Notes: generated from the letters alone by a model not told the origin. Numbered from the stretch's first letter, positions 1 through 28,478 are shown. The stretch: 56,727 nt of DNA from a virus (IMGVR_UViG_3300027759_000110:1-56727), one strand, 5' to 3'. Numbers and translations are program-made.

Positions 1-1604
1 TTAGTAAACCTCCTCCTCCCCCTCCTCCTCCAGAGCAAGAAATGGAGATGTATCAGACGGGGATTGAAGGCGAGAGCCAAACACCAACATACGGCTACAG
101 GCCAAAGGCTTCGGCAGCACCACCACCACCTCCTCCTCCTCCTAATCAAGAGATGGAGATGTACCAAACAGGTATTGAAGGTGAGAGTCAGTTAGCAACC
201 TATGGTTATAGACCAGTATCTCCTGCGCCAGCTAGTTTTTTAAGTGGCAATGCTCCTGTTGAGCCTAAAGCACCAGATAGTATTGCCTATGAAGACAATC
301 CTTTCATGTTTAATGATGTAGCACAATTATCTTCACCACTTGGAGAAATTGTGGGACAAGCACCAGTAGGACTCGCTCCAAATAGCATCAGCAATGACGC
401 TTATGAAAATGATCCAGCTTATTGGGATAGAGTGATGGCAGACGCAAAAAACGTTGGAATGAATCCTGCACCTGCGCCACAACCTATTCCTACACCTGTT
501 ACTCAAACACCAGTAACACCACAGCCTGCACCAACACCACCTCCTGCGCCTGTGGCTGTAGCACCTCCACCTGTGGCGGCAACCCCTGTGGCTGCCCCTC
601 TTGAGCCTGTGGGAACACCTGCTCCTGTGGCGGCTACACCTGCACCTACACCTGTGGCGACACCCGCACCAGCAACACCAACCCCGACTGCGAGTCCAAC
701 TATGGCAACAGCAACTACATCCAACATTGACCCAACAATTCAACCATATTTATCTTATGGTTTATCAGAAGCCCAAAAGCTATACCAAGGCGGTGGGCCT
801 CAGTACTATGGTGGTCAGACTTATGTAAGCCCCTCACAAGCCACTCAAACTGGTTTACAGGCTTTGGAGCAACGTGCCACTCAGGGTAGCCCCTTAACTG
901 GTGCGGCTCAAGGTCAACTGCAAAGTACCATTCAGGGTAACTACCTAAGTGGAAACCCTTTCTTCCAAGGTGCGTTTAATCCTGCGGCACAGGCGGCTGA
1001 AGCTAAGTTCAAGTCATCATTGGGTGACATTGGTTCTGCGGCTTCTAAGGCTGGTCGTTATGGCTCTGGTGCTATGTCTACCATGCAACAAGGCGCTAGT
1101 GGTCAGTTTGCCAAGACTTTGGCTGATACGGCTGGAACTCTGGCTTACCAGAACTATGAGTCAGAGCGTGGCAGACAACAAGCGGCTACGATGGCTGCAC
1201 CTCAAATGGCTCAAGCTGATTACGCTGATATTCAGAATCAACTCAAAGCTGGTCAGATGCGTGAAGGCTATACAGGCGCACAACAGCAAGCTGACATCAA
1301 CAAGTTCAACTTCCAGCAAACCCAACCACAACAAAACCTGACTAACTTCTTGTCTGGTGTTTATGGCAATCCATTAGGTAGACAGCAAATGTCTGCTGGT
1401 GGCGGTCAAGCTGGCCCATCAGGTTTCCAGAATCTCTTAGGTACTGCGGCTACTCTTGGTGGTCTTTATAAAAACATTGGTGGCGCACAGGGTGTATCTC
1501 AGATTGGTAACTGGTTAACTGGTGGTGGCTCTAGTATTCCTAGTGCATATAACGCTGCGGCAAATTATGCGGCTACATCTCCAACTGGTTGGTTGGATTT
1601 CTAA
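1..1604 (+). CDS. Ejection/DNA-transfer protein (P22 gp7-like C-terminal part) with Pro-rich N-terminal extension; 5'-truncated by the window
   Basis: Frame is open upstream of the ATG at 42. From 702 (MATATTSNIDPTIQPYLSYGLSEAQKLYQ...GRYGSGA) the protein is G/Q/A-rich like podoviral pilot/ejection proteins. First of a three-gene series preceding a tail fibre. Confidence 0.6.
   Translation, partial: SKPPPPPPPPEQEMEMYQTGIEGESQTPTYGYRPKASAAPPPPPPPPNQEMEMYQTGIEGESQLATYGYRPVSPAPASFLSGNAPVEPKAPDSIAYEDNPFMFNDVAQLSSPLGEIVGQAPVGLAPNSISNDAYENDPAYWDRVMADAKNVGMNPAPAPQPIPTPVTQTPVTPQPAPTPPPAPVAVAPPPVAATPVAAPLEPVGTPAPVAATPAPTPVATPAPATPTPTASPTMATATTSNIDPTIQPYLSYGLSEAQKLYQGGGPQYYGGQTYVSPSQATQTGLQALEQRATQGSPLTGAAQGQLQSTIQGNYLSGNPFFQGAFNPAAQAAEAKFKSSLGDIGSAASKAGRYGSGAMSTMQQGASGQFAKTLADTAGTLAYQNYESERGRQQAATMAAPQMAQADYADIQNQLKAGQMREGYTGAQQQADINKFNFQQTQPQQNLTNFLSGVYGNPLGRQQMSAGGGQAGPSGFQNLLGTAATLGGLYKNIGGAQGVSQIGNWLTGGGSSIPSAYNAAANYAATSPTGWLDF
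42..215 (+). repeat. MEMYQTGIEGESQ..TYGYRP peptide repeat, copies 1-2 (starts 42 and 153)
   Basis: Direct reading; homologous copies at 17093 and 17366. Confidence 0.9.
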
Positions 1605-1614
1605 GGAATAAATC

Positions 1615-3018
1615 ATGGCAGGACTATTAGACATTTTTGGCACTAGCGGTCAAGACACAATGGGTCTTCTGGGGATGTCTCCAGAGGATATTGGTCGTAG
1701 CCGTGACGAAGCACAAGCCCAAGCACTTTACGCATTAGCAGGTCGTCTGTTTAAAGGCGGTAGTGGTGCATCGTCTGTTTTAGAGGGCTTACAGCAAGGT
1801 CAGCAAGCCTACAGAACCGCTATGCAAGGTGGTCTGCAAGAGCAATTGCAAAGAGCACAACTTCAAGAAATGCTTAAAAAGAAGCAACTTGAAGAACAAC
1901 AGAAAAAAGATGAATTGATGGCTAGACAATTGTTTATGCGTGGCTATCAACCTGCTGTTGCTGGTAAAGAATCTATGCCTATTGAGGAAGATGGCAGATT
2001 TATTGGTGATTCACAAGGTATTGCTGCTAAACCTGCTAGGTTTGATATTGGCTCAATTGCTCCTGAACTAATGGCTATTGGACCTGCTGGTCAGGCTCAA
2101 CTTAAAACAGGTCTTGAACTTCAAAAGTCAATGGCTGGTGAAACATTCAAACTTGGTGAAGGTGAGAAGCAATATCAACGTAATCCTCTTACTGGTGAAA
2201 TTACTGAAGTTGCGGCTGGTGCACCAAAGCGTGAGCCAGTACCTACATCAATTGCTGAATACAATTTAGCAAAAGCTCAAGGATTTGAAGGTACTTTGTT
2301 AGATTATGAAAAATCTAAAAAGGGATTTACATATCAAGACGTTGGCAATGCAATTATTCAATTAGATGCAAATGGAAAAGAAGTTTCACGCATAACTAAA
2401 GGTCGTGCGCCAGAAGGCCCTGTAAGTTTCCAAGCTATTGAAACTGACCAAGGATTGATGGCGTTTAATCCAAAGACATATCAAATGACTCCTGTTATGG
2501 GTGCTGATGGTAAGCCATTAACTAAGTCTGGTAAGCCAACTGAAGGTGAAACTAATGCGGCTGGATTTGCATCTCGGATGGTTGCTGCAAATGCAATCAC
2601 ATCTAAATTAGCCTCAGGCAATGTTCCTAAAACAATAGAAGCAATTTCAGGTGTTATTCCTTTAATTGGCAAAGCAATTCCAGAAGTTATCCCTCAGGGT
2701 ATTGGTGGATTATCTCCAGAACGCAGACAATACTTACAAGCGGCTAATAACTTTATTCGTGCTAACTTGCGTAAGGAATCAGGCGCAGCAATTGGTGCTG
2801 ATGAGTGGACTGCTGAGTTTATTAACTACTTCCCACAGTACAACGATGATGCACAAACAATTAAGCAGAAAGAAATTTTCCGTAACATTCTGACTCAAAA
2901 CATGGTTGCTGCTGGCGGTAAGTCATACAAAGCACCAAGCATGACAGCACCTGAGTCAATGACTGATGCTTACGGACTAAATCCAAGATTGCGTGACTCT
3001 TTGCGTGGAGGTCAGTAA
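1615..3018 (+). CDS. Ejection/DNA-transfer protein (gp20-like position)
   Basis: 467 aa, AAGGA RBS, MAGLLDIFG start, C-terminal NFIRANLRKESGAAI...YFPQ motif seen in phage internal virion proteins; synteny. Confidence 0.55.
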   Translation: MAGLLDIFGTSGQDTMGLLGMSPEDIGRSRDEAQAQALYALAGRLFKGGSGASSVLEGLQQGQQAYRTAMQGGLQEQLQRAQLQEMLKKKQLEEQQKKDELMARQLFMRGYQPAVAGKESMPIEEDGRFIGDSQGIAAKPARFDIGSIAPELMAIGPAGQAQLKTGLELQKSMAGETFKLGEGEKQYQRNPLTGEITEVAAGAPKREPVPTSIAEYNLAKAQGFEGTLLDYEKSKKGFTYQDVGNAIIQLDANGKEVSRITKGRAPEGPVSFQAIETDQGLMAFNPKTYQMTPVMGADGKPLTKSGKPTEGETNAAGFASRMVAANAITSKLASGNVPKTIEAISGVIPLIGKAIPEVIPQGIGGLSPERRQYLQAANNFIRANLRKESGAAIGADEWTAEFINYFPQYNDDAQTIKQKEIFRNILTQNMVAAGGKSYKAPSMTAPESMTDAYGLNPRLRDSLRGGQ

Positions 3019-5054
3019 TGGCTTACGAAAATGTTGAGCGTATCCGTAAAAACCTTATCACAATGGTTGATAAGAACGCACCTGTTGATGATATTAACAA
3101 ATACCTAAAAGAAGAAGGATTCACTCAAGAATCTTTTGTTAAAGCACTAGATCTTGTTAAAAAATCTGGTGGTAAGACTGCTGAGTTTGGCGCAGGTCGA
3201 TCATTGGCTCAAGGTGCTACATTTGGTTTTGCTGATGAACTTGAGGCACTAACAAAGTCACTTGCGGGTCAAGGTACTTATGAACAAAACTTAGCGGCAC
3301 TTGAACTTGCTAAACAAAGGTATGGTCAAGAAAATCCTAAGACTGCATTGGCTACTGAGATTGCAGGTGGATTGCCATACGCATTATTACCATTTTTAGG
3401 AACTGCTCGTTATGCACAAATGGCTAGAGAAGCATCTCCATTGGTTCGTGCGGGAGTTACGTCTGGGGCCTCTGCTGTTACAGGCGCAATTACTGGCGCA
3501 CTCGGTGGTGCTGGTGCTGCAGGGGTTGGTGAGCGTATGGCTGGCGCACAAGCTGGTGGTGCATTGGGTGGTTTAGTTGGTGGTGCTGCACCTGCGGTTA
3601 CCAAGGGCATTGGAATGGCTGGAGGTAAAGTAGTTGATGTAACTAGCGGAATTCCTGTTGTTCAGCAAGTTGGTAAGGTTGTTGGGTTGGCAACTGGTCA
3701 AAGTGTTGACTATGCTAATCGTGCAAAAGCTAAGTTATTAGAGGCTTTGTATCGTGATAAGGTAAGCCCTGCTGATTTAGAAAAGATGATTCTTGCTTCT
3801 GCTAATTTAGAGAGAACAATTACTGGTACTACCAAGCCAGTAGGAATTGTTGATATTGCTGGTGAAAATGTAAGGTCACTTGCTGATGTTGCTCAGAAGT
3901 ACCCAAGCACAGCGAGACAGACTGCTAAGACAGCACTTGAAGAACGAGCCGCAGGTCAGGGTGAGCGTATTCAAGGCGACATTTCAAAGTACCTTGGTGG
4001 CTTTACAGACCCATTTGAATACACAACAGCAATTGCTCAACGGCAACAACAAGTATCATCTCCGCTTTACCAAAAAGCATACGCTTATGGTGAGGTAACA
4101 AACCCTAAGGTTCTTAAATTTTTAGAACTTCCTCAATTCAAAAAGGCGGCTAAAGAAGCTCAAGATTTGCTTGCGGCTGAAGGTCGTTCTGTAGATATGT
4201 CTATGCCTACAGTAGAGGTTTTAGATCAAGTTAAACGTGGTCTTGATGTTTTAATTAAAAAAGAAACAGACCCATTTGGAAAGATTACTGATCTTGGTCG
4301 TATCTATAAAAATAAGAAAAATGAATTTTTGGCTGAGTTAGATACTGCTGTTCCTGACTTTGGTAGGGCTAGAGCCGCATTTGCTGGTGAAGCTGAATTG
4401 CTTGATGCGACAAAGCTAGGAAAAGACTTTTATAAACAGACTGCGGCAGAAGCCAATCGTACATTTGCCAAGTTGTCTCCATCTGAGCAAGAGGCTTACA
4501 AAGTAGGTGCTTTAGATGCTGTAAAAGAAAAAATTACAACTGCTAAAGATACTGCTGATATTCGTAAGCGCATATTTGGTTCACCAGCAGAGCGTGATCG
4601 TGTTTCGTCACTATTCCCTGATACTGATACTTTCAAGCAATTTGAAAAAGACATGATGACTGAATCAATGATGCGTAAGACTCAAGAGAAAATCTTGGGT
4701 AACTCTGCAACATTTGAGAGGCAAATTGCTGGTCAGGCTTTAGAAGCAGAGCCTAGCTTTATTGGTCAAATGATTGAACAGGGCCCACTCAGGGGAACTA
4801 TGGGTTACTTGAAAGCACAGGGTCAAGGTGTTGCTGGTCAAACAGCAGAGGAACTTGGCCCAATGTTATTTAAACTTGGTGACCCAAGAGCAAATCTTCA
4901 AACATTAAAAGCCTTGAGTGCTTATGAGAAATACTTGCTTGATTTGGAAGCCAAAAAAGCTGCTGGTTTAACTGGTGCATCTACAATGACAGGATTGCTA
5001 GACACAGAAAAACCTTATCGTATAGATTTAACTGGAATGGCTAACCCCGACTAA
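3018..5054 (+). CDS. Ejection/DNA-transfer protein (gp16-like position)
   Basis: 678 aa, TAATG overlap with the previous gene, GRSLAQGATFGFADE motif and a Gly/Ala hydrophobic stretch typical of podoviral injection proteins. Confidence 0.6.
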   Translation: MAYENVERIRKNLITMVDKNAPVDDINKYLKEEGFTQESFVKALDLVKKSGGKTAEFGAGRSLAQGATFGFADELEALTKSLAGQGTYEQNLAALELAKQRYGQENPKTALATEIAGGLPYALLPFLGTARYAQMAREASPLVRAGVTSGASAVTGAITGALGGAGAAGVGERMAGAQAGGALGGLVGGAAPAVTKGIGMAGGKVVDVTSGIPVVQQVGKVVGLATGQSVDYANRAKAKLLEALYRDKVSPADLEKMILASANLERTITGTTKPVGIVDIAGENVRSLADVAQKYPSTARQTAKTALEERAAGQGERIQGDISKYLGGFTDPFEYTTAIAQRQQQVSSPLYQKAYAYGEVTNPKVLKFLELPQFKKAAKEAQDLLAAEGRSVDMSMPTVEVLDQVKRGLDVLIKKETDPFGKITDLGRIYKNKKNEFLAELDTAVPDFGRARAAFAGEAELLDATKLGKDFYKQTAAEANRTFAKLSPSEQEAYKVGALDAVKEKITTAKDTADIRKRIFGSPAERDRVSSLFPDTDTFKQFEKDMMTESMMRKTQEKILGNSATFERQIAGQALEAEPSFIGQMIEQGPLRGTMGYLKAQGQGVAGQTAEELGPMLFKLGDPRANLQTLKALSAYEKYLLDLEAKKAAGLTGASTMTGLLDTEKPYRIDLTGMANPD

Positions 5055-5066
5055 GGACTAACATGG

Positions 5067-5555
5067 CTACTCAAGTCTTGCAAAACTCCCATGTAATTCC
5101 AATGCGGCTTTTTTGTAGGCTTGACTAGCTTCTTCAGCAGTTTTGTAACAACCCAAACTAATACATTTGTAATTAACTGTAATTCTTGCAACAAACCTAT
5201 TATTTTGATTATGAAGATAAACCCCTTTAAATCCAGTAGTGTTGCTTGTTCTCAGTTTTGTGTTTCTGTTGTTTTGAGCGTTGTTTGCTTCACGCAGATT
5301 AGAAGCCAAGTTGTTTGAACGATTGCCATCTATATGATCTATCTGTTCAGGCCAATAACCATTAAACATCATAAAAATGATTCTATGAACGTAGTGCTTC
5401 TTTTTGTTAATTGTTACTTCACAGTAGCCGTTGCTTTTTTTAAGTCGGCTGGCTTGTTTGCCTATGAGTTTATTTCCTCTGCGATCAACTTTCCAAAAGA
5501 GATGACCATCACGATACTCGAAAAGTTCGTGAAGAAATTGCTGTGTGATTTCCAT
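5067..5555 (-). CDS. HNH homing endonuclease with C-terminal AP2-like DNA-binding domain
   Basis: HRIIF...IDHIDGNRSNNLASNLRE HNH motif; NTTGFKGVY...LGCYKTAEEASQAY AP2-like tail. Start placed at ATG 5555 (GGTGGA upstream) rather than 5585. Confidence 0.9.
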   Translation of the reverse strand: MEITQQFLHELFEYRDGHLFWKVDRRGNKLIGKQASRLKKSNGYCEVTINKKKHYVHRIIFMMFNGYWPEQIDHIDGNRSNNLASNLREANNAQNNRNTKLRTSNTTGFKGVYLHNQNNRFVARITVNYKCISLGCYKTAEEASQAYKKAALELHGSFARLE

Positions 5556-5564
5556 ATATCCACC

Positions 5565-5665
5565 AAAGAAAAACCCCTTGAACATTCGCAGTACCAGTGC
5601 AAATATCCAAGGGGTAGCCAGTGGCTTAGAACTCTAAAGGTCTGGTACACCCAAGGTCTAAGCCT
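5565..5665 (-). ncRNA. Two-hairpin leader with complementary loops (GTACCAG / CTGGTAC); the second hairpin is terminator-like
   Basis: Minus strand GGCTTAGA...TCTAAGCC stem, then ACCCCTTGGATATTTGCA-CTGGTAC-TGCGAATGTTCAAGGGGT followed by TTTTCTTT. Confidence 0.55.
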
Positions 5666-5671
5666 ACCGAT

Positions 5672-5700
5672 ATTCTTTCATAAACAAATTGCCTTGTCAA
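5672..5700 (-). promoter_or_regulatory. Sigma70-like promoter for the HNH-AP2 gene
   Basis: Minus strand TTGACA-17 bp-AAGAAT with TG extension. Confidence 0.55.
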
Positions 5701-5743
5701 CCACCAAGGCTTAAAATCAGATTAACCGAACTAGGAGTCCAAA

Positions 5744-7330
5744 ATGGCCCGTACGAAGATTAGCGAATTTAGCGCAACACCAGCAAGCAATACCGATATT
5801 GATAGTATTAACATCAGTGAGGGCTGTGCACCCTCTGGTATCAATGACGCTATCCGTGAATTAATGAGCCAACTGAAGGACTTTCAGACAGGTGCTGTTG
5901 GTGACTCGTTTAACGGCCCTGTAGGAACGACTACGGCTGCTGCTGGTGCGTTTACTACGCTAGCGGCTTCTGGTGCTGTAACCCTGTCTGGTGGTACTGC
6001 CAATGGTGTTACTTATTTAAACGGCTCTAAAGTCCTTACAAGTGGTTCTGCGCTTACTTTTGATGGTACTAATTTAAATACTACTGGTAACTTTCAAATT
6101 GGCGGCACAAAGATGCTGAGTAAGATTACTGGTGATTCTTACATTTGGAATAACACATCTGCATTGAATTTTGTTAGTAGCGATGGAAATACTGTTCAAT
6201 TAAAACTTGACTCCTCTGGCAACCTTGGATTAGGAGTTACTCCTAGTGCTTGGAGTGGAATGAAAGCATTTCAGTTGGGTGACGGCACATTTGCAATGTC
6301 TTCTGATGGAGCAGGTGCAGGTGATGGCTCTCTCACTTGGAACGGCTATTACAACGGCACAAATTGGATTTATGGCTATACAGGTGGCGGTTCTAGTAGA
6401 TATCGCCAGACTGAATTAGGTCACGCTTGGTTTTATGCCGCATCAGGTACAGCAGGAAACGCCATTACCTTTACTCAGGCAATGACTCTGGATGCTAACT
6501 CCAATTTAATTGTCAATGATACTGCGGTTCAATACTCATCAAAGCTGTATGTCAATGGTGCTTTTGCCGCTCGTAATGGCGGTGTGGACGGAACATATGC
6601 GGATGCTTTTACTGCGGGATACAACGGGAACTATAACGAAAAAAATGTTATTCAGACTCAAGTAGGCGGGGCTTCAGGATTTAGATTTAAAACTTCAAAT
6701 GGAGGTGGTTCTGCGTCAACCACCACAACCCTTGATCTAGCAATAAATGGAACTATTTTTTATATTAATGGATCGGAAAAAGCCCGTATAGACTCAAGCG
6801 GTAACTTGCTGGTGGGGACTACAAATTCAGCAGAAAATGCTGGAGCTGGCTTTAAGTTGCTAACTAGCGGTCAAGTTGCTTGTATTACTACAGCAAACAC
6901 AACAAATGCTCAAATGTCAACTTACGAGTTGTACTCAACAGGTGCTAGTGCTTTTAGATTTTATGTTGGTGCTGGTGGAACTATTTTTGCCACATCTACA
7001 ACTATCACCGCTATTTCTGACAAACGCCTAAAAGAAAACGTCCGAGATTTGGATGATGGTCTTGATGTGGTGATGGCATTGAAGCCTCGCAAGTTTGATT
7101 GGAAAGAAGGCAAAGGCGCTAATATCAAAAATGCTCGTGGTTTTATTGCTCAAGAGTTTGAGACAGTATTGCCAGACATGATTGAAACATGGCGTGACCC
7201 TGCGCCTGAAGGTGAAGAACCATATAAAGCAATCAATGCAAACTTGATTCCAACATTGGTCAAAGCCATCCAAGAACAACAAGCAATCATTGAATCACTC
7301 AAGGCACGTTTGGATGCCGCTAACCTTTAA
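5744..7330 (+). CDS. Tail fibre with C-terminal intramolecular chaperone (peptidase S74) domain
   Basis: N-terminal anchor NTDIDSINISEGCAPSGINDAIRELMSQLK; repeated LDSSGNL/IDSSGNL fibre motifs; SDKRLKENV...GFIAQE...LVKAIQE S74 signature; AGGAG RBS. Confidence 0.88.
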   Translation: MARTKISEFSATPASNTDIDSINISEGCAPSGINDAIRELMSQLKDFQTGAVGDSFNGPVGTTTAAAGAFTTLAASGAVTLSGGTANGVTYLNGSKVLTSGSALTFDGTNLNTTGNFQIGGTKMLSKITGDSYIWNNTSALNFVSSDGNTVQLKLDSSGNLGLGVTPSAWSGMKAFQLGDGTFAMSSDGAGAGDGSLTWNGYYNGTNWIYGYTGGGSSRYRQTELGHAWFYAASGTAGNAITFTQAMTLDANSNLIVNDTAVQYSSKLYVNGAFAARNGGVDGTYADAFTAGYNGNYNEKNVIQTQVGGASGFRFKTSNGGGSASTTTTLDLAINGTIFYINGSEKARIDSSGNLLVGTTNSAENAGAGFKLLTSGQVACITTANTTNAQMSTYELYSTGASAFRFYVGAGGTIFATSTTITAISDKRLKENVRDLDDGLDVVMALKPRKFDWKEGKGANIKNARGFIAQEFETVLPDMIETWRDPAPEGEEPYKAINANLIPTLVKAIQEQQAIIESLKARLDAANL

Positions 7331-7342
7331 AAGGAAAACATC

Positions 7343-7645
7343 ATGTCAGTAACTTGGAAAATCTCAACCCTTGATCGTGACGTAGCAACAGGCTATGTAA
7401 CTACCGCCCATTGGACAGCATCAGCAGTAGACGGAGATCACTCTGCCTCTGCCTATGCAACAGTCTCATGGCCTGAAGGCACTCCTGCCATTCCTTACGC
7501 ATCCCTCACAGAAGCCACAGTCCTTAATTGGGTGTGGGAATCTGTTGACAAGGAAGCTACTGAGTCTGCTTTGGCGGCTCAGATTGCTTTGCTGAAGAAT
7601 CCTGTAAAAGCCTCTGGCACACCTTGGGCAACACCAATAGTTTAA
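7343..7645 (+). CDS. Tail fibre-associated small protein
   Basis: 100 aa directly after the fibre; IPYASLTEATVLNWVW...GTPW pattern common downstream of phage fibres. Confidence 0.55.
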   Translation: MSVTWKISTLDRDVATGYVTTAHWTASAVDGDHSASAYATVSWPEGTPAIPYASLTEATVLNWVWESVDKEATESALAAQIALLKNPVKASGTPWATPIV

Positions 7646-7660
7646 ACAGGAAGCTGCCAC

Positions 7661-8350
7661 ATGACTGCCTTTTATGTTTATGAACATACCCGTAAAGATA
7701 CGGGGGCGGTCTTTTATGTTGGCAAAGGTCATGGTAAACGGCATTGCTCTAAACTCAACAGAAACCAATATTGGCATAATGTTGTGAACAAAGCTGGAGG
7801 ATTTGATTCCCGTGTTGTTTACGAAGACCAGTCTGAAGAATTAATATTGCTTGCTGAAATAGAGAAAATTAACCAGTTGCGGATGCTAGGTGTAACTCTT
7901 GTTAACTTGACTGATGGCGGTCAGGGCATCACAGGATTAAAACACTCAGAGGAAAGCAAACGGTTAATGAGCCAAAAGCTCAAGGGCAAAAGCCACAAGC
8001 ACACGCCTGAGTCAATTGAAAAAATTAGGCAAGCAAATACGGGTGTTGTTTTTTCTGATGAACGTAAAGAGAAGTTGCGGCAAAAGGCTTTAGGCAGAAA
8101 GATGCTACCTCATGTAAGAGAAGCTCTTAAGCAAAGAATGAAGTCTTTTAAACAATCAGAAGAAACCAAAGAGCATTTGAGGCAAGTAAACCTTGGTCGC
8201 AAACATACGCCAGAAACTTTAATAAAAATGAGTGCATGGCAAAAAGATAGACCAAAGTTAATTTGCCCACATTGCAACAAGGCCGCTAACGTTAACATGG
8301 CTAAACGTTGGCATTTTAATAACTGTAAACTGAAAGAACAAAATGGCTAA
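7661..8350 (+). CDS. GIY-YIG-type homing endonuclease with NUMOD3 repeats
   Basis: FYVYEH...FYVGKG...LVNLTDGGQG catalytic domain; repeated KHSEESKRLMS / KHTPESIEKIR / KHTPETLIKMS NUMOD3 motifs; C-terminal CPHC. Confidence 0.85.
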   Translation: MTAFYVYEHTRKDTGAVFYVGKGHGKRHCSKLNRNQYWHNVVNKAGGFDSRVVYEDQSEELILLAEIEKINQLRMLGVTLVNLTDGGQGITGLKHSEESKRLMSQKLKGKSHKHTPESIEKIRQANTGVVFSDERKEKLRQKALGRKMLPHVREALKQRMKSFKQSEETKEHLRQVNLGRKHTPETLIKMSAWQKDRPKLICPHCNKAANVNMAKRWHFNNCKLKEQNG

Positions 8351-12728: not shown

Positions 12729-12730
12729 AC

Positions 12731-19418: not shown

Positions 19419-22400
19419 ATGGCAAAAGAATTCTCGTTTGAAGAGGCAATTGGCACACCCAAAGAAGACAAAGAAAAGAAGTCTTTTTCTTTTCAGGAAG
19501 CCGTACAGCAACCTAGTGCTGGGTTTTCTCTTAAAAACATAGGTCTTGCTTTTGGCCAAGGATTGACCGGTGCAACGCAAGACATTTCCAGTATTGCTGG
19601 TGCAACCAATCCTCTTGCTCAAGGCTTGGGTAGTTTGCAACAAACTGCTGGCGAGGCAATGACTCCTGAGCGCAGAGCTGAGATTCAACGTCGCCAACAA
19701 ATTGAAAAAGCCGCAGAAGGCAACACTTGGGAAGAGATCAAAGCCAAGCTTGGTGGTGTTGCTGAGGCTCCCCTTATAACGGCAGCAACAGTTGCTGGCG
19801 GTGTTGTTCCATATGTAGCTGGTACGCTTGCAGTCCCAGAGGTTGCTATTCCTGCAATGATTGCAAGGCTGACCGGCCTTGGCATGTCTGCCAAAGTGGC
19901 GCAAAAGGTTGCTTCCGCAGTGCCTGTTACTGCGGTTGGTGGAGTGATGGGCCTTGGCGGTCAGAAGAGCCAAGACTATGAAACAGTCAAACGTGAGTTG
20001 CTTGAAAAAGGTGTTAAAGAAGAAGAAGCGGAAATCCTTGCTCAAAAGGCCGCAGAGTATTCTTTAAAGAATCTTCCTAGACAAGCCGCAGCTGCTGGCG
20101 CTGGCGCATTTGAAGGCGCTATTGGTGCTGAAGGTTTGTTGAGCCGTGCTGTTAAGAAGCCTCCTCAAATCCAAGGTAAATCAGTCAACATGCCTGAGCC
20201 AACTTGGAAAGAAGCAATTGCAAAAAGCACTGTTGGTGAGGCTTTGCCTGAAGGCATTCAGTCTGCGGTTGGTACTGCCGGAACGAACGTCGCTCTAACC
20301 GAGGCTGGTATCCCTACAGACATTGGTAAAGGCGTACTGTCTAGTGCAGTGCGCGATACGCTGGTTGGCGGCCTTATGGGTACGGCTGTCTCTCCGTTGA
20401 AGATGAGAGAACTGCGTCAAGAATTTGTTGCTAATGAGATAGAAGCCCAGAAAGAATATCAAAAGCAGCAGCGTGAAGAAATTACTGCTGCTAAAAAACG
20501 TTTAGACGATCAGTTGGAGATGACCAAGAACCCTCTTGGATCATTTACTCTTGATGAACTTGGCCCTGATTTAGCTAAGACTGTTGAATTACACCGTTCA
20601 GTTACAGGTAAGCCAGCACTAACTTCATATGCTTTAGATGACATCATTGATGCGCTGCCCGGTAAAGACAAGATCAAAGAATCAGAGAGTTTAAACACAT
20701 TAATTGCAGCCAAATCTGGCTACACCGATGAGGTTTACACACCTACTCAAATTATTGAAATAGCTCAGGCTAAGAACGTAGACAGTGCCGCACCAAGCTT
20801 TGCCGACTTTCTTTCTAGGACAACTGGCATCAGTGATCCTATGCAGATGTCTCAACCCCAGCTTCATGCTGCGGTTACAAGTTTAAACAGTCTGCCCGGT
20901 TTCGCCACAACGCAGGCTCTACCAGAAGGCTCAAACGCCACCCGGTACAGCCCAGAGCAGTTTAAACAAGCCATTGATGGTTTAAACGCACAAATGGATG
21001 CGCTGGCCAGTGACGAGTTAAATTTTAAACAAACTACAAAAACAATAGAAGCAGCCACGGGACTCAAAGGTTCTGCTGTCAATGAGTTGCTTAATGATGC
21101 CAACCGCAACGGCGACATCCTTACGGTTGACAAAAAAGTTAGTATCCCCTCACGTACCATGCCTACTGGATACGGCATTTCTGAGGAAGTTGGTCTTGAG
21201 CAAGAGGTTGCAGACGCTTACGACATCATGCGCGGTGAAGAGAAGCTGACTACCGCTCCCAATGAAAATGCAGCTACCACTCTTGTAGAGAAACTACAAA
21301 AGATTACAGACTCTGACATTAAGAAAGTTGATGCAGAACTTAAATCAATTGATGAGAAGACCGCCAAGTCTGAAGATGAATTAAACAGATTGATCATTGA
21401 AGGTAAAGCTAACTCTGAGGAATACAAAGCCGCAGAGATGGCCCATCAAGCCCTGATGGATACCTCCATGCCAACCATTGCAGAATTGGTGGCTAAAAAG
21501 GAATCTTATGGTAAACCCCTAGAGATCATTCCAACTGGGGTTAAAACAGTTAAGCCTACGTCCTATATTGTACGTAAGGGTGAAGACATCCAAACCGTTG
21601 CACAAGACCGTGCTGCGGCTGAACAAGCCATTTTTGAAGACTTGTCCGAGAAAGATCTTCAGGATCTGGTCAAGAAGCCTTCGCCCGCATTGCAGAAGCG
21701 TGTAAACGCAGAGATCCAACGCCGTGCAGCTTTACCGCCAGAAGGCGCTCCTGCAACAGCGGCAACACCTGAGCAGGAAACTAAATTAAAGCAGTTGGAA
21801 ACTGATCTTCCAGCCATGTTGGCTAAGTTTGGTTTGCAAGATGTTGGCCTTAAGATTGTTAACGCCATCAAGGGCGGTGCTGACGGCTCTTATGAGGCTA
21901 ACCTAATCCAGATCGCTCTGGACGCAGTTAACCCTATCCGCACCCTTCGCCATGAGTCTATCCACGCCCTGAAAGAGCTGGGCTTTTTTACGCCCCAACA
22001 ATGGGCCGTATTGGAGCGTCAAGCTAAAGCTGAATGGGTGCAGAAGTACCTGAAGAATAAGAAATACACGACAGATGATGGCGAGATTATCAGCCGTTAC
22101 GAAGCTTATCAAACCCCCGGTATTGCCAGCAAAGAGGGTTTAAACGAAGAGCAGATTATTGAAGAAGCGATTGCTGATGCTTTTGGTGATTGGGATGGCA
22201 CTAAAGCACCTCCCGGAATGATGACTGCGCTCTTGAACAAGATGCGTAACTTCTTTACTGCGTTGCGTAATTACCTAAACGGTCAAGGCTACCAAACTTA
22301 CGAAGACGTGTTTGGTAAGGCTGAGCGGGGCGAACTCAAAGCCCCTGCTACAAAAGTAGCAAAAGAGCCAATTGAAGAAGCTGAGCCTAAAAAGTCTCTT

Positions 22401-25400
22401 ATCCGTCCCGCAGTTGAGGGTGAAACAGAGATATCCACACGTAACCCACAGGGCGTTAAACGCACTAACGATCCAATCGCAGAGATGCTGTCGATTGATG
22501 AGGCGGCAGTACGTGAGGCCATGAAGGCCAATCCTGATATGTATAAACGCACAGTCCAAGCCATCAAAGGCTACGGATTTGTGCCAAACAACACGCCGCC
22601 CAATCAAGTTATTGATGTGTTTAAACGCAACATTATTAGCAATTTGCTGTATCTCTACAACAAAGTTCCAGCTGATATTCGTGAGCGCAGTAAGCTTTGG
22701 TACGACGGTGCAAACCGTATTGCCACCGATATGAGCAAGAACTACAAGGTTTCCATGGAGCAAGTGGCTGGCATTATGGCCGCTATGTCTCCGCAGAAAG
22801 ACTGGTTCCAAAACGTTTCTATGGCTGAACGTGCGTTGGACATCTTGACTGAACAAGGCAACAAGTCTTGGGATGCCAACATGATCAAATACGCTGAGAG
22901 CTATGTTAAGGAGGCTACAAGCCGTAAGGAGCGAGAGAAGCGTCAGGCTGCTTTTGACAAGATCAAGGGCGTATCCCGTGCTGGTACAAGTTTAAACGAC
23001 ATGACGCAAGACGATGCGGCTGCGTTTATACGTGCCTATGACGAGGCTTATAACTCCCGTCAGTATCGGATCGTCACACCAGAGGGTGGCTTTGGCGATT
23101 TTGTTCGTAAGAATGATGGCGATCCTGCGACCATGATGTGGTCTACATACGACCCAATCAAGAAAACAGTCAGCATCTTCCGTGATGGAAGCCGTAAAAA
23201 CATTAGCGAACAGCTGGGCGAAGAGCACAAGATCCGTTCTTTCTACAACAACATTGCCGCACCTAACAGCGATATCGGCCACGTAACCATTGACACTCAC
23301 GCAGTTGCCGCAGGCTTGTTTGAGGCGCTGGCTGGAACAGACCAAGAGGTTGTCCACAACTTTGGCGGCACAGGCAAGAACATCAACCTTGGCGTTGGTG
23401 GCACATACGGCATCATCGCAGATGCTTATCGTGAAGCCGCTCAGAAAAAGGAAGTTCGTGCCCGTGAGATGCAATCCATTACATGGGAAGCTGTACGTGG
23501 TTTGTTTGGCGAGAACATCAAGAGCACCATCAAGCCTAAGATCCGTGCCGAGTGGACTAAGTACAAGACTGGTGAGCAATCATTTGAGGCTACCCGTGAA
23601 AAGGTTATGCAGATTGCCGGTGGTATCGACAACCCTGACTGGGTAGGAACTGACGCTGGAAACTTTGTGGCCAATGGCGGCTCAAGCTACGACAAAGCGT
23701 TTACACCTGAAGGTGGTGTGCGCCTGCGTGAAGCCAAGGACATCCGTGAGAAGCTGACATTCAACCTTTCTGCGGTTACTAACTCTATCCCCGGCCTGCG
23801 TGAGTTGTACCAACGTGCAATGGGCCGTGATCAGGAAGCTTACACCGTGCTCCAACGAGTTGCGGAAAGCTCCCTCAAGTTCTTATTGAGTGGTACAGGC
23901 GCAAAGGTTAACGTTGAATATGCCAAGGGCGTGTATCTATCCGACCGTGAGCCATCTATTTCTGTTGGCGTTTCATTCTCTGAAGCAGAAATGAACGATG
24001 TGATGGCCGCATTGGCCAAGTTTGCCGACAGCTATAACCAACAACAGATCCATGTGCGTCAAGAGACTGCGCAGAAGTTTGGTCATGACTTTGGTGATGG
24101 TTCATACGCCACTGCGGTGTATGAAATTGGCCTCAAAAAACAACTAAACAACAAACAAATTTCACGAGTAATTGATGAGTCTGGCTTGCAAGGTTTTACA
24201 ATTACCAATAACAAACTGACAACATACTTTGTAAGGACAGAAGGCGATGAACAAGCAAACTACAAATCCTTCACAGAACGAGTCAAGCGAGTCCACGAGT
24301 TGGTGGGAGACAGCTCTAGCCGAGTCGGACGAACTATTGAACGCCTCTACGTCTACGGAGATGGATACGGAGCAAGGATCCCGTACAGCGAAGTCGCGTA
24401 CCCTTCAAGCGACATTCGTACCAAACAAGAGAGTGACACAGTAACTCCCAAGCTGATTGCTGAGTACTTAACAAAAGCTCCTGTTACAACGTTTAAACAG
24501 AAGCCTCTTTCCGCCAAACAAGTCAAAGATCAACAGAAGCTGGCAAAAGCATTTGATGCCATGCCTGTTAACGACTTGAGCAACCCTTTAGTCAAACGAG
24601 CCTACACTGCGTTGGCAAATGCTCTTAAAGAGCAATACCAAGTCATGCCTATTAAGGTTGAGTTGATGGAGACCATTGACGAGCCTTACGCCAACAGCGA
24701 TGAAGTCCGTCGTGATGTAAGTGTAAACAACAGATTTAAAGTTTACGCCACCTCTCCTGAGACATTCGGCCCACCCGGTTCAAACTTTAAAAACCATCCG
24801 CTGCTCAAAGATTCCGGGCTGAAAGATGTAAACGGCAAGCCAATGTTGTACAACGACTTGCTCCGTGCAGTTCATGATTACTTTGCCCACAACCTGACTG
24901 AGACTCAGTTTGGGCCAAATGGTGAAGCAGCCGCTTGGCGCAACCACATGGCCATGACGCAAGATCCGTTTGCACGTTGGGCGCTGACAGCAGAAACCCG
25001 TGCGCAGAATGCATGGCAAAATTTCCGTCCAGAAGCAAAAGGTTTAAACCTTATTGAGCGAGGATTTGCAGATCAGAAGGCAGCTTTGCCGCCTCTTGAG
25101 TTTGTAATGACTGGCGATTCCAAAATTGATCAGCCTGTAACTGAGCTAAAAGAAGTGCTGACACCTGAGCAACAGCGTGGCAGTGTTCCAGCTGGCGTTA
25201 AGTACAGCTTACGTGCTGCGCCAGAAACTTCTGAGTTTAAACAATGGTTTGGTGATAGCAAAGTTGTAGATGTGTTTAACAGACCAAAGATGATGTACCA
25301 CGGCACTGCTCAGGACATTACTGAATTTAGACCAAAGCAAGCTGGTGCAATCTTTTTGACAGATGACCCCGAGTTTGCTAGTGGATTTTCTTCTGATAGC

Positions 25401-28400
25401 AAAATGTGGATGGCTGGACATCCAGATCAATTTTTAACTCCTGAGCAATTAGACAAAGGGGTTAAACAGGCTATCAAGATTATTCGCAGTGAATACGGTA
25501 ATGATTCTTTAGGCAAAGAGATGATTGCTAGTTTGGCATCAGGTAAGTATGCTGATGCTACACCTGAAGCTCAATTGACTCTGCGCACTGTGTACAAGTA
25601 CATGTTACCGTCCGGCCCTAACATCATGCCTGTCTACGTTAGCGCACAGGATCCTTTTAATTTTGACAATCCCGATCACATTGACAGGGTGATGGATAAA
25701 TTAAAAAATTCTGACATGTGGCGCGAAGCTGTTGAAAATGGTAATTGGAAAACAATTGAAAATTCTACGGTTCAAGAAGCAATTAAAGCCGCAGGTTTTG
25801 ATGGCTTTTATGTTAACGAAGCGGGTCGCAAAAACCTTGCAGTCTATGACTCATCACAAATTAAGTCTGCCACGGGGAACATAGGTACATACGACAAGTC
25901 CAGCCGCGACATTCGTAAGAGTTTACGTAAAGTTCAAGATGAAGTAGATTCTTTGCCTAACGGTGCGGCTATCAACGCTAGTATCAACAGAATTGCACCA
26001 GCTCGTGAACAAGAAGGTTTCTTTGAGCGCATCATTAATGCGTTTAAACCACAAAGCGTAGACGCGCTGCGCCAGCAGTTTCTAAACCGCTATAACCAAC
26101 TTGGTGTGTATGACAAGCTTCTTGCTGAGAAGATGGGTGGAGCCGCTCTTCTGGCTGACTCAAGCGCAGAATCTGCCGCCCTCATGTCAGACAATGCCGC
26201 CGCTATTGCATCTATGGCTTGTGGTATTGATGGTAACGGTGGCGCTCCAGTTTTTAAGAACGGTTTTACAACCATCGATAACTCGGTTAAAGGCCCTTTA
26301 GAGCTTTTAATGCCTTTGGCAAAAACCGGTGACCCCCGTATCTATCAAACCTATCAATTCTGGGCTGGCGCTAAGCGCGGCAAGCGTTTGTTAGCCACAG
26401 GCAAAGATTACACTTACACTCCCGCAGACCTTGCTTACGCAGCTGAGCTGGAGAAGAAGTATCCTGAGTTTAAACAGGTGCAGGCAGACTGGATCCAGTA
26501 CAACAATGGACTGATGAAGTACGCAGTGGACACGGGAGTTCTTGCTCCTGAAAGAGCCGCAGAGTTCATGAAGTACTCTGACTACATCCCGTTCTATCGT
26601 CAGATTGACGGTGAGACCACTGTCGGCCCTAGACTGTTCCAAAATATCTCAGGAGTTACACCTCCTAAGAAGTTGACGGGCATCAAGGAAGGACAAGAGG
26701 CTCCTCTGGCTGACTTCCTAGAAACCATTGTCCGTAACACTCAGTCCATCATCCAATCCGGTATGAAGAATGCTGCGGCACAACGCGCTGTCGGTGCGGC
26801 TGTTCAGTTAAAGACTGCCCAAAAGCGTACTGACGTGTCATATTCACCCGGTGTTGTTACTGTGTTGGAGCGTGGAAAGCCTGTCTCCTACGATGTTTCT
26901 GATCAGTTGTTCATTGATGCTGTTAAGAGTTTAAACCTACCAGAACTGCCGTTCTTGAGCATCTTCTCTGCCCCTGCCAACTTGCTCCGGAATATGATCA
27001 CCAAAGATCCCGGCTTTATGATGGCCAACTTGATGCGTGACTCCTTGTCTGCGTGGGTTACTAGCGGTGCAAATATGACTCCTATCGCCTCTACCATCTC
27101 CAACTTTGGTAAGGCTATCGGTGGCAAAGATCCTGCATACCTTGCTCTACGCAATGCTGGTGTGATCGGTGGTTATGAGTTTGCCAGCGACATCAAGACA
27201 AGCGGTGCTATCTTGGGTGCAAGTCTGCGCAGAGCGACTGGAACTGAGATGGGTGCAGAGAAGGCTCTTAAGCCGTTTACAAGCCTTTGGCGCGGCCTAG
27301 AGAAAGGTACAGAGGCATCTGATGCCGCTACCCGTATGGCTGTCTACAAATCAACCTTGGAGCGTACAGGTAACGAGGCAGAAGCCATCTTCCGCGCCAT
27401 GGAGGTGATGAACTTTAACCGCAAGGGTAACCTTGCCATTGTTCGTATTCTGACTGCGGCTGTGCCATTCCTGAATGCTCGTATGCAGGGCTTGGATGTG
27501 TTCTACCGTGCCGCCTTTGGCAAGATGGCCAGTGAAGATGCCGCCGCTATTCAGCGTTCATTCTTCATCCGTGGTGCAACTCTCATGGCCCTGTCTGCCA
27601 TGTATTGGTTCTTAACCCATGATGATGAGGAATACATCAATCAAGAGCAAGAGACACGAGACAACAATTGGCTGTTCCCATCTGCGGGCATTCGTATCCC
27701 AATCCCGTTTGAGGTTGGTGTACTGTTTAAAGTCGTTCCGGAGCGTCTGCTTGAGTACTCATTTGGTAACGATACTGGTAAAGATCTAGCCGACTCAATG
27801 AAGCGTAACTTGGTTAGTACCTTTGGTATTAGCCCTCCTCAGACTTTCTTACCATTGATTGAGGCTCGCACCAACTACTCTTTCTTCACAATGAGACCCA
27901 TTGTTGGGCAGGGCATGGAAGGTGTAGCCACTGAATTTCAGACATCTCCCGGAACTTCTGAGCTGGCTAAGACGGTCGGTAAGGCAATTGGACAGTCACC
28001 TATCATGGTTGACCACATCATTAAAGGTTACACAGGCTCAATGGGAATGTACGCAGTTGACTTGATTGACGCAATTCTTTTTGCAAATGATTCATCGCCT
28101 AAAGCCGCTAAACGCTTTGAGCAACTGCCTGTTGTCAAAAGGTTTGCAGTTGACAAGGAAGCCAAAGGTACGCAAACGGCTTACTATGAACTAAAAAATT
28201 CTGTTGATGAAGTTGTGAGAACAGTCAACATGATGGAGGCAACTGGCGCTGGTGAAGATCTTGGCGCTTACATGGAGAAAAACGCTCAACTGTTTGGCAT
28301 GAGAAACTACATAAGTAGCGTAGAGAAACAAATGAAGTTGATGCGTCAGGCAACAGTCCAGATCCGTTCATCGGATATGTCTCCTGAAGAGAAGAGAGAC

Positions 28401-28478
28401 TCTCTAATGGCTATCACACAGGCTCAGAATGCAATGACCTCCGGCATTAGAGAACTCAAGAAATCTATTGCACAGTAA
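19419..28478 (+). CDS. Large polyvalent (DarB-like) injected protein: HExxH metallopeptidase-like, HhH/glycosylase-like, second His-motif domain, ADP-ribosyltransferase-like and LPD38-like domains
   Basis: 3019 aa, AGGAG RBS; RHESIH...EEAIADAF (~21950); WYDGA..MSPQKDW..KIRSFYNNI..VTIDTH..MQSITW (~22700-23490); RAVHDYFAH (~24865); FKQWFGDSKVVD..YHGT..IFLTD..IMPVY..GFDG..QIKSATGN (~25235-25900); IRIPIPFEVGVLFK (~27690). Confidence 0.75.
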   Translation: MAKEFSFEEAIGTPKEDKEKKSFSFQEAVQQPSAGFSLKNIGLAFGQGLTGATQDISSIAGATNPLAQGLGSLQQTAGEAMTPERRAEIQRRQQIEKAAEGNTWEEIKAKLGGVAEAPLITAATVAGGVVPYVAGTLAVPEVAIPAMIARLTGLGMSAKVAQKVASAVPVTAVGGVMGLGGQKSQDYETVKRELLEKGVKEEEAEILAQKAAEYSLKNLPRQAAAAGAGAFEGAIGAEGLLSRAVKKPPQIQGKSVNMPEPTWKEAIAKSTVGEALPEGIQSAVGTAGTNVALTEAGIPTDIGKGVLSSAVRDTLVGGLMGTAVSPLKMRELRQEFVANEIEAQKEYQKQQREEITAAKKRLDDQLEMTKNPLGSFTLDELGPDLAKTVELHRSVTGKPALTSYALDDIIDALPGKDKIKESESLNTLIAAKSGYTDEVYTPTQIIEIAQAKNVDSAAPSFADFLSRTTGISDPMQMSQPQLHAAVTSLNSLPGFATTQALPEGSNATRYSPEQFKQAIDGLNAQMDALASDELNFKQTTKTIEAATGLKGSAVNELLNDANRNGDILTVDKKVSIPSRTMPTGYGISEEVGLEQEVADAYDIMRGEEKLTTAPNENAATTLVEKLQKITDSDIKKVDAELKSIDEKTAKSEDELNRLIIEGKANSEEYKAAEMAHQALMDTSMPTIAELVAKKESYGKPLEIIPTGVKTVKPTSYIVRKGEDIQTVAQDRAAAEQAIFEDLSEKDLQDLVKKPSPALQKRVNAEIQRRAALPPEGAPATAATPEQETKLKQLETDLPAMLAKFGLQDVGLKIVNAIKGGADGSYEANLIQIALDAVNPIRTLRHESIHALKELGFFTPQQWAVLERQAKAEWVQKYLKNKKYTTDDGEIISRYEAYQTPGIASKEGLNEEQIIEEAIADAFGDWDGTKAPPGMMTALLNKMRNFFTALRNYLNGQGYQTYEDVFGKAERGELKAPATKVAKEPIEEAEPKKSLIRPAVEGETEISTRNPQGVKRTNDPIAEMLSIDEAAVREAMKANPDMYKRTVQAIKGYGFVPNNTPPNQVIDVFKRNIISNLLYLYNKVPADIRERSKLWYDGANRIATDMSKNYKVSMEQVAGIMAAMSPQKDWFQNVSMAERALDILTEQGNKSWDANMIKYAESYVKEATSRKEREKRQAAFDKIKGVSRAGTSLNDMTQDDAAAFIRAYDEAYNSRQYRIVTPEGGFGDFVRKNDGDPATMMWSTYDPIKKTVSIFRDGSRKNISEQLGEEHKIRSFYNNIAAPNSDIGHVTIDTHAVAAGLFEALAGTDQEVVHNFGGTGKNINLGVGGTYGIIADAYREAAQKKEVRAREMQSITWEAVRGLFGENIKSTIKPKIRAEWTKYKTGEQSFEATREKVMQIAGGIDNPDWVGTDAGNFVANGGSSYDKAFTPEGGVRLREAKDIREKLTFNLSAVTNSIPGLRELYQRAMGRDQEAYTVLQRVAESSLKFLLSGTGAKVNVEYAKGVYLSDREPSISVGVSFSEAEMNDVMAALAKFADSYNQQQIHVRQETAQKFGHDFGDGSYATAVYEIGLKKQLNNKQISRVIDESGLQGFTITNNKLTTYFVRTEGDEQANYKSFTERVKRVHELVGDSSSRVGRTIERLYVYGDGYGARIPYSEVAYPSSDIRTKQESDTVTPKLIAEYLTKAPVTTFKQKPLSAKQVKDQQKLAKAFDAMPVNDLSNPLVKRAYTALANALKEQYQVMPIKVELMETIDEPYANSDEVRRDVSVNNRFKVYATSPETFGPPGSNFKNHPLLKDSGLKDVNGKPMLYNDLLRAVHDYFAHNLTETQFGPNGEAAAWRNHMAMTQDPFARWALTAETRAQNAWQNFRPEAKGLNLIERGFADQKAALPPLEFVMTGDSKIDQPVTELKEVLTPEQQRGSVPAGVKYSLRAAPETSEFKQWFGDSKVVDVFNRPKMMYHGTAQDITEFRPKQAGAIFLTDDPEFASGFSSDSKMWMAGHPDQFLTPEQLDKGVKQAIKIIRSEYGNDSLGKEMIASLASGKYADATPEAQLTLRTVYKYMLPSGPNIMPVYVSAQDPFNFDNPDHIDRVMDKLKNSDMWREAVENGNWKTIENSTVQEAIKAAGFDGFYVNEAGRKNLAVYDSSQIKSATGNIGTYDKSSRDIRKSLRKVQDEVDSLPNGAAINASINRIAPAREQEGFFERIINAFKPQSVDALRQQFLNRYNQLGVYDKLLAEKMGGAALLADSSAESAALMSDNAAAIASMACGIDGNGGAPVFKNGFTTIDNSVKGPLELLMPLAKTGDPRIYQTYQFWAGAKRGKRLLATGKDYTYTPADLAYAAELEKKYPEFKQVQADWIQYNNGLMKYAVDTGVLAPERAAEFMKYSDYIPFYRQIDGETTVGPRLFQNISGVTPPKKLTGIKEGQEAPLADFLETIVRNTQSIIQSGMKNAAAQRAVGAAVQLKTAQKRTDVSYSPGVVTVLERGKPVSYDVSDQLFIDAVKSLNLPELPFLSIFSAPANLLRNMITKDPGFMMANLMRDSLSAWVTSGANMTPIASTISNFGKAIGGKDPAYLALRNAGVIGGYEFASDIKTSGAILGASLRRATGTEMGAEKALKPFTSLWRGLEKGTEASDAATRMAVYKSTLERTGNEAEAIFRAMEVMNFNRKGNLAIVRILTAAVPFLNARMQGLDVFYRAAFGKMASEDAAAIQRSFFIRGATLMALSAMYWFLTHDDEEYINQEQETRDNNWLFPSAGIRIPIPFEVGVLFKVVPERLLEYSFGNDTGKDLADSMKRNLVSTFGISPPQTFLPLIEARTNYSFFTMRPIVGQGMEGVATEFQTSPGTSELAKTVGKAIGQSPIMVDHIIKGYTGSMGMYAVDLIDAILFANDSSPKAAKRFEQLPVVKRFAVDKEAKGTQTAYYELKNSVDEVVRTVNMMEATGAGEDLGAYMEKNAQLFGMRNYISSVEKQMKLMRQATVQIRSSDMSPEEKRDSLMAITQAQNAMTSGIRELKKSIAQ

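Follow-up and report, generated by a model that had tools for sequence, protein, structure and literature searches.

We analysed a 56,727-nucleotide (nt) viral contig, IMGVR_UViG_3300027759_000110:1-56727 (hereinafter the window, meaning the whole stretch at its full length), in which two sets of podophage ejection-type genes lie on either side of a single tail-fibre gene and a lysis cassette. The IMG/VR record is the whole contig, classed as linear, with a CheckV completeness of 92%. Its structural arm is one long series of plus-strand genes running from base 3 to 28,478, followed by early genes on both strands. The first module consists of three open reading frames (ORFs): ORF1 (3-1604), open at its 5′ end and composed of an N-terminal extension (residues 1-236) and an ejection-protein-like core (residues 237-533); ORF2 (1615-3018; 467 amino acids, aa); and ORF3 (3018-5054; 678 aa), which contains a Gly/Ala-rich hydrophobic stretch. 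By position and size, the ejection-type products of ORF2 and ORF3 would resemble P22 gp20 and gp16, respectively. The fibre gene (5744-7330; 528 aa) matches tail-fibre PHROGs and carries a Pfam Peptidase_S74 domain at residues 425-479. It is followed by genes for a DUF7936 protein (7343-7645; PF25590, E = 3.9e-26) and a NUMOD3 homing endonuclease (7661-8350; phrog_314, E = 1.9e-24; PF07460), then by small ORFs, a holin with three transmembrane segments (9365-9778; phrog_3427, PF11351) and an M15 peptidase endolysin (9775-10212; phrog_894, PF08291). The second module comprises the nozzle/hub gene o12 (10243-12384; phrog_3287, E = 8.8e-63), the internal or ejection-type series o13-o18 (12381-19398), assigned from sequence and from synteny with phages DSL-LC04 and CRP-901, and o19 (19419-28478), which encodes a 3019-aa polyvalent protein and is the last gene of the arm. 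ORF and profile scans thus place both modules, the fibre and the lysis genes where a prior sequence-only reading of the contig had put them.

The head module lies at the other end of the window (47282-56727, plus strand) and encodes terS, terL, portal, a GroES-like protein and the major capsid protein (55273-56181), followed by a last ORF (56272-56727) that is truncated by the contig end. Since the structural arm occupies 3-28,478 and the head module 47.3-56.7 kb, the true genome has the head module ahead of base 1, and the contig break falls between the post-capsid gene and ORF1. The sequence-only reading had suggested looking upstream of the window for a second terminase, portal and capsid; the window itself has one terminase, one portal, one capsid gene and one nozzle.

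Two phage lineages on one contig

Separate searches for relatives of each module returned two distinct lineages, hereinafter designated A and B. The comparison set comprised 350 external loci from IMG/VR and metagenomes (L-numbered; 3.59 Mb in total, ten loci being duplicates between two collections), together with four metagenomes available as Logan contigs (X1-X4).

Lineage A accounts for bases ~711-5950, that is, the ORF1-ORF2-ORF3 trio and the N-terminal ~60 residues of the fibre. A search of IMG/VR with ORF3 retrieved 28 related loci at 60-99% identity, all of which show the order ORF1 core, ORF2, ORF3 and fibre anchor as far as each contig extends across them, and the window is 92% identical in nucleotide sequence to L009 and L010 over 711-5061. 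The lineage-A contigs L009 and L035 measure 33-37 kb (lineage size ~33-43 kb), and the protein search found ORF3 homologues in just two phage records, MJing1 and RHph_I1_23, of 42-43 kb. Upstream of the trio, L009 and L035 encode a scaffold, an SU10-type capsid protein, an SU10-type adaptor, a GP4 gp80-like protein, a 411-aa protein, a 481-aa hub that matches phrog_3287 (hub A) and a 262-aa protein; downstream come the fibre, DUF7936, the lysis genes and then early genes. In L009 the endolysin is followed by Erf and primosomal genes, and a second hub is absent.

The ORF1 core matches phrog_4287 ("DNA ejection protein", E = 6.6e-10) and shares 59-90% identity with 297-aa lineage-A ORFs that start at the equivalent of nt 711. 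The extension that precedes it in the window consists of two repeat copies (nt 12-110 and 130-225) and a Pro-rich linker, and the linker (228-620) retrieved no relatives when used as a query. A different Pro-rich N-terminal extension, of ~190 aa, is present on ORF1 of L035 (L035:6255-7975), in which the 262-aa gene has also shrunk to a 100-aa ORF retaining just its two ends. A "PEPVYTPP"-type stretch that by eye seemed common to the L035 extension and homologues of o17 was dropped, as blastp returned no match at E < 0.01.

ORF2 is 64-92% identical to its counterparts in 25 of the 28 lineage-A loci and 41% identical in the other three, and has no Pfam (E ≤ 0.01) or PHROG match. Among named Atlas clusters, the one closest to ORF2 contains PF16928, Inj_translocase (score 0.91, a lead only). 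Searching all six frames of the window with PF16928 yielded no match at E ≤ 10, and the top BFVD match of ORF2 is named "DNA transfer protein" (37% identity). ORF3 matches phrog_5880, a family of no known function (E = 3.5e-65), and its nearest named Atlas cluster carries PF26808, Phage_P22_gp16 (score 0.95, 171 shared features; likewise a lead only). PDB sequence and profile searches with ORF1-3 yielded nothing below E = 0.08. Two AlphaFold models obtained in the ORF1-3 work reached a predicted local distance difference test score of 59.9 and 51.0 and a predicted template modelling score of 0.30 and 0.33, too poor for use, so the BFVD matches are read as sequence relatives and not as folds. 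The gp20-like and gp16-like labels are thus tentative and draw on position and size in lineage A, the Atlas leads and the name of one BFVD relative.

Lineage B accounts for the window from the fibre body through the lysis genes, nozzle, internal proteins, o19 and early genes to the head genes. Searches with o12 and the capsid protein added 160 further loci, from which the lineage-B order reads capsid, a variable region, a309 and c282, d138/e158, f273, a fibre with its own anchor, DUF7936, lysis genes, o12 and o13-o19. Both a309 and c282 match SU10_adaptor. The order from fibre through o19 recurs in DSL-LC04, CRP-901 and 88 IMG/VR or metagenome loci; because lineage-B relatives and both phages share it, the lysis cassette within the structural arm is a normal lineage-B trait and not a seam. 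DUF7936 homologues lie 3′ of the fibre in A and B loci alike.

The o12 product matches phrog_3287 over residues 3-710 and, among PDB sequences, 9nwi_Y (E = 2.2e-12) and the "nozzle gp16" chain 8zkk_O (E = 0.019), while phage records label its homologues "stabilization protein" or "constituent protein". The full-length profile match and the similarity to solved nozzle chains identify o12 as a podophage tail nozzle/hub. Among the proteins that follow, o15 has hydrophobic Gly/Ala stretches, o17 is Pro-rich and o18 is Gln/Pro-rich. The o19 product contains LPD38 (E = 3.3e-32), DUF7178 (E = 4.3e-28) and ART-PolyVal (an ADP-ribosyltransferase; E = 3e-14) domains, all above Pfam cut-offs, and L042 and L049 match its N-terminal part at 83-86% identity. 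At the head end, the capsid protein matches Phage_capsid_4. Each of the 36 loci that extend 5 kb or more past the capsid gene continues to the adaptor-like a309/c282, and most reach d138/e158; capsid loci that reach far enough show f273 and an anchor-B fibre, and none has ORF1-3.

Two local variations were seen among lineage-B relatives. In L213, L223 and L274, o13 is followed by a domain resembling the lineage-A 262-aa protein over residues 57-221, and the corresponding place in the window (12381-13114) is taken by an unrelated 133-aa o14. The homing endonuclease gene is a sporadic insertion: alignments to L041, L049 and L053 skip ~7634-8405, and an X1 contig spans 7711-8588 with zero differences.

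The fibre-gene switch and the contig ends

The change from lineage A to lineage B falls inside the tail-fibre gene, somewhere in 5952-6936, a switch zone bounded by exact matches and by the limits of Logan contigs. Fibre residues 1 to ~60 form the lineage-A anchor, a motif around residues 64-125 is conserved in the fibres of both lineages, and the body is variable up to the S74 intramolecular chaperone at the C-terminus. The last exact words specific to lineage A end at 5952, the alignment to L036 extends to 6076, and similarity to lineage-B fibres begins at nt 5975. Three exact islands of 40-50 nt (6449-6497, 6782-6822 and 7271-7308) are common to loci of both lineages. When X1-X4 were compared with window positions 1-20,000, their contigs stopped or jumped at these islands, with loose ends at 6785 and 6824 and joints 6071>6785 and 6254>6449. 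Zero-difference contigs, among those listed, run from 6936 onward in X1 and from 8191 onward in X2, all within 6936-19,115, indicating that the lineage-B part exists as such in other samples. The X1 and X2 bins over 2002-4669 have almost no cover except for variant contigs at ~3.0 kb in X1, and none of the contigs listed from X1-X4 bridges the switch zone; such absences are not counted as evidence, because contigs of depth 3-5 leave holes. Searches with the fibre protein found neither the same strain nor the join, the best matches being 52% identical in IMG/VR and 83% identical in JGI metagenomes, the latter over residues 223-528 on a 1.7-kb contig.

The two fibre anchors keep strictly to their own lineages. 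Anchor A has A genes upstream in 35/37 loci, B genes upstream in none and the B module downstream in none; anchor B has B genes upstream in 51/61 loci and A genes in none. The window combines anchor A with a lineage-B nozzle. Among the 350 external loci, 37 have homologues of ORF1-3 and 88 have homologues of o12, o16 or o18, and no locus has both, including 22 A loci with at least 6 kb downstream of the trio, enough to reveal o12, and 26 B loci with at least 7 kb upstream of o12, enough to reveal the trio. The two sides of the contig therefore belong to different lineages, and the join between them occurs in none of the 125 A or B loci.

The sequence-only reading had also proposed a second tail hub. 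The window has one hub gene: no homologues of the adaptor-like genes, of a309-f273, of hub A or of the 262-aa protein were found in it, the lineage-A hub matching only within o12. As adaptor-like genes follow in 36/36 capsid loci with room for them, the expected tail genes are missing exactly at what would be the second junction.

Both ends of the contig lie in shared sequence. The left end falls inside a repeat that recurs at 17,070-17,434, and the last 60 nt form an exact island in three lineage-B contigs that are only 81-83% alike overall and represent different strains; all three run on to the adaptor genes and an anchor-B fibre. These positions, in a repeat and in a conserved island, indicate that both ends are places where the assembly graph branches. 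Adding the missing B segment of 8.4-9.1 kb (by comparison with L117 and L357) to the ~50.8-kb B part gives a genome of ~59-60 kb; the CheckV estimate implies ~61.7 kb (56,727/0.92). A published survey of HTVC023P-type genomes gives an average of 58.8 ± 2.5 kb (PMC9599517).

A third arrangement occurs in L250, L251, L249 and L254, which have an SU10-like head and adaptor, B-like e158/f273, a fibre, a holin, a 262-like protein and a hub; in L250 and L254 the hub has genes like ORF2 or ORF3 on its 3′ side. These loci are natural mosaics between lineages.

Within the left part of the window, the stretch 5062-5740 is absent from L009 and L010, and contigs of X3 and X4 join 5059/5067 directly to 5756/5819. 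It contains a small, doubtful ORF (5334-5714, plus strand; 126 aa) with homologues at 82-86% identity in lineage-A L036 and L198 and a further match in L312.

Origin of the join

The two modules had been described as unrelated, which is true in part. ORF2 and ORF3 show no similarity to o15, the o16 N-terminus, o18 or the o19 N-terminus of the second module (hhalign probability ≤ 0.5%). In hhalign comparisons, 175 columns of the ORF1 core can be aligned to the C-terminal domain of o16 (probability 94.6%, E = 7e-8), and hub A aligns with o12 (98.5%, E = 1.7e-15), hub A and o12 both matching phrog_3287. The modules are thus not wholly unrelated.

A peptide repeat further connects them. It has the form P(n)-QEMEMYQTGIEGESQ..TYGYRP and is present in two copies in ORF1 and two in o17 (17070-17165 and 17336-17434). 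The four copies, each a proline run plus QEMEMYQTGIEGES, are 74-88% identical in nucleotide sequence, and cross-gene pairs are the closest, which supports the earlier proposal that the two lineages have exchanged sequence. Relatives of o17 bear other motifs at the repeat position, for example QEFEFMQNGF. The repeat is evidence of exchange between two gene pools, not of both copies residing in one genome.

We favour, with a probability of about 0.6, the explanation that the contig is an assembly chimera of two separate freshwater podophage lineages joined in the fibre gene, and rate this as more likely than a natural recombinant. The left side is the structural-arm end of a phage of ~33-43 kb whose capsid and adaptor are of SU10 type and which also encodes a GP4 gp80-like protein and a phrog_3287 hub. 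The right side is a ~60-kb phage whose arm resembles those of DSL-LC04, CRP-901 and HTVC023P, with the fibre and lysis genes between adaptor and nozzle. Both lineages carry the collinear block of fibre, DUF7936, small ORFs and holin with its exact islands, and through this block the assembler, not recombination in a cell, would have passed from B into A. The "two ejection sets" would then be one set per phage. A single event of this kind accounts for the unique combination of genes, the mismatch of anchor and nozzle, the missing adaptors, the repeat-bound ends and a lineage-B genome of 59-60 kb.

Several observations weigh against an assembly artefact. The largest k-mers of common assemblers exceed 50 nt and the islands shared among relatives are at most 50 nt, so a chimera requires that the sample's own two phages share more. 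The ORFs on both sides are all intact. Natural A/B mosaicism is abundant, L250 and L251 having an A-like head with B-like e158/f273 and some B loci having 262-like domains beside o13. The cross-gene repeat pairs (87.5% and 81.8% nt identity) are closer than the within-gene pairs, and the QEMEMYQTG repeat, present here in ORF1 and o17, is missing from all 350 other loci, a pattern consistent with a shared gene pool and possibly a single genome. No sequencing run compared with window positions 1-10,000 contained half of its words, the best shares being 0.25, 0.22, 0.20 and 0.16. Moreover, in the simulated viromes of one study, chimeras made up less than 5% of contigs of at least 10 kb (PMC5610896), so the prior for an artefact is not high.

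The strongest alternative, which we regard as possible though less probable, is that a co-infecting lineage-A phage supplied a lineage-B phage with a ~5.3-kb block (extended ORF1, ORF2, ORF3, fibre anchor) through one homologous crossover in the fibre gene and a second junction in the unassembled gap, the recipient thereby encoding two ejection-type sets. Exchange of modules between A and B is frequent, conserved islands scattered through the patchwork fibre gene offer possible crossover points, and the homing endonuclease gene lies 0.3 kb 3′ of the fibre. The ORF1/o17 repeat is unique to this contig among the 350 loci. The extended, repeat-bearing ORF1 seemingly exists elsewhere: on our reading of the joint and depth tables, an 817-nt X3 contig lies on 540-752 (5 differences) and 151-256, connecting a copy of the repeat with the beginning of the ORF1 core, and X4 has a similar joint, and ORF1 of L035 bears a different Pro-rich extension. 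The resulting genome of at least 65 kb would fall in the 61-68 kb range of related contigs. Nevertheless, the combination is found in none of the 37 A and 88 B loci, and the sole fibre has an anchor that pairs with A tail genes in 35/37 loci, yet the sole nozzle is that of lineage B, so that the recombinant needs either an anchor without its partner or a second set of tail genes. As the upstream adaptors are only 25-28% identical, the second junction would need illegitimate recombination, and as the A block is 92% identical in nucleotide sequence to true A phages, the event would be both recent and rare.

A more elaborate version, which we consider unlikely, takes the contig as a real DSL-LC04/HTVC023P-like phage that acquired an SU10/GP4-like trio and anchor and packs two non-homologous ejection sets, ORF1 being recruited to the capsid or ejection channel via the QEMEMYQTGIEGES repeat acting as a portable targeting or docking signal. 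Two alternative injection machines in one phage, or a satellite and helper on one contig, are very improbable: their sole support is the presence of two ejection-type gene sets, against which stand one terminase, portal, capsid gene and nozzle, no adaptor, no integrase or satellite-type gene noticed among the ORFs scanned, and a left part that forms a normal segment of a complete phage lineage. Hence, of the four origins put forward by the sequence-only reading, the two-lineage recombinant and the fibre-region assembly chimera stand, given separate, populated lineages that switch in the fibre, and the alternative apparatus and the satellite/helper pair find no support.

If the assembly chimera that we favour is correct, two abundant podophage lineages of freshwater viromes have a collinear fibre-lysis block with exact islands, through which catalogue contigs can splice half a tail from another phage, and claims on gene content, host range or "novel architecture" made from such contigs require read support. 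If the join is natural, the contig represents a rare podophage with two ejection-protein sets, and the repeat is a candidate virion-loading signal. Either way, lineage A combines a P22-like order of hub, needle and trio with an SU10-type tail, the lysis genes of lineage B sit between fibre and nozzle, and the ORF1 core is homologous to the C-terminal domain of o16.

Comparison with known systems and minor features

In phage P22, the genes run in the order gp10 (hub), gp26 (needle), gp14, gp7, gp20 and gp16. Lineage A resembles this arrangement in that its 481-aa hub, 262-aa protein and products of 297, 467 and 678 aa are near the P22 sizes, the ORF1 core matches a "DNA ejection protein" PHROG, and the Atlas clusters of ORF2 and ORF3 carry the gp20 (Inj_translocase) and gp16 families as leads. 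A three-gene trio 3′ of a hub and a needle-position gene is present in L009 and L035; the window itself starts inside ORF1. By contrast with P22, ORF2 has no Pfam match to Inj_translocase and ORF1-3 have no match to a solved structure, the lineage-A capsid and adaptor are of SU10 type, and the fibre follows directly after the trio.

The closest named relatives of the lineage-B part are DSL-LC04, the Roseobacter phages CRP-901/902 and the Pelagibacter phages HTVC023P/HTVC027P, with o12 sharing 31-38% identity over 77-89% of its length. The arms of DSL-LC04 and CRP-901 likewise comprise adaptor, fibre, lysis genes, nozzle, internal proteins and, at the end, a long protein, after which early genes occupy the opposite strand; the window lacks the adaptor part. 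None of the DSL-LC04, CRP and HTVC records has an ORF3 homologue or a nucleotide-level match, megablast of positions 1-20,000 against phage records gave zero matches, and the last protein of DSL-LC04 is 1069 aa long compared with 3019 aa in the window. The head module of the window shares a GroES-like gene with the HTVC023P type, for which GroES is described as a core gene and family-A DNA polymerase as one of the core replication genes (PMC9599517). No DNA polymerase was seen among the 11 early ORFs scanned, a subset of all ORFs; primase/helicase, a Sak-like annealing protein and an exonuclease are present among them.

As for the tails of SU10 and Ralstonia phage GP4, lineage-A L009 matches SU10_MCP, SU10_adaptor and Gp80, the lineage-B a309 and c282 proteins match SU10_adaptor, and the hubs of both lineages belong to phrog_3287; the window itself differs in having no adaptor, gp80-like or SU10-capsid genes. 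Polyvalent proteins, a concept reportedly introduced by Iyer and colleagues in 2017 for phages and conjugative elements with domains such as LPD38 and ART-PolyVal, have a member in o19, which joins LPD38, ART-PolyVal and DUF7178 in one chain at the end of the virion-protein arm. Compared with chimeric virome contigs as a class, the present case involves two co-linear lineages with exact shared islands.

Two further motifs were considered. The peptide motif [YF]AxGG is confined to the second module, as previously noted, with four copies (two in o16 and one each in o17 and o18) against 0.33 expected there and none in the first module; it may serve these internal proteins as a common signal for docking or processing. 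In the longer form [YF]AxGG[SLI][VI] it occurs at 15366 and 15651 (o16), 17561 (o17) and 18031 (o18), and relatives of o17 retain it near the C-terminus, for example as FAKGGL(V/I)(N/D)LLRRR.

The 8-base palindrome GTTTAAAC occurs at 52 sites in the window (range 7640-56237) compared with 1.11 expected. Its absence from the first module had been taken as a distinguishing mark, and it is indeed absent from 1-7639, but this is not specific to the first module: all of 1-20.7 kb is poor in sites, with 3 of the 52 falling in 1-20,688 and 49 in 20.7-56.3 kb, and we therefore rejected it as a marker. The enrichment is an unexplained signal at the DNA level. Thirty-four sites are intragenic, split equally between two stop-avoiding frames, and 18 are intergenic or at gene ends; clusters occur at 35615/35670/35701 and 40356/40396/40437, with no wider flanking consensus. 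Relatives in lineage B likewise show enrichment of the palindrome (0.08-0.11 per kb); lineage A does not (4 sites in 413 kb).

A search of the window for transfer RNA genes found none. Auxiliary-type genes lie on the minus strand at 42112-45186 and 30345-30977 and encode a CobT-like VWA protein, an AAA+ "porphyrin biosynthesis" (CobS-like) protein and a ferredoxin-family protein.

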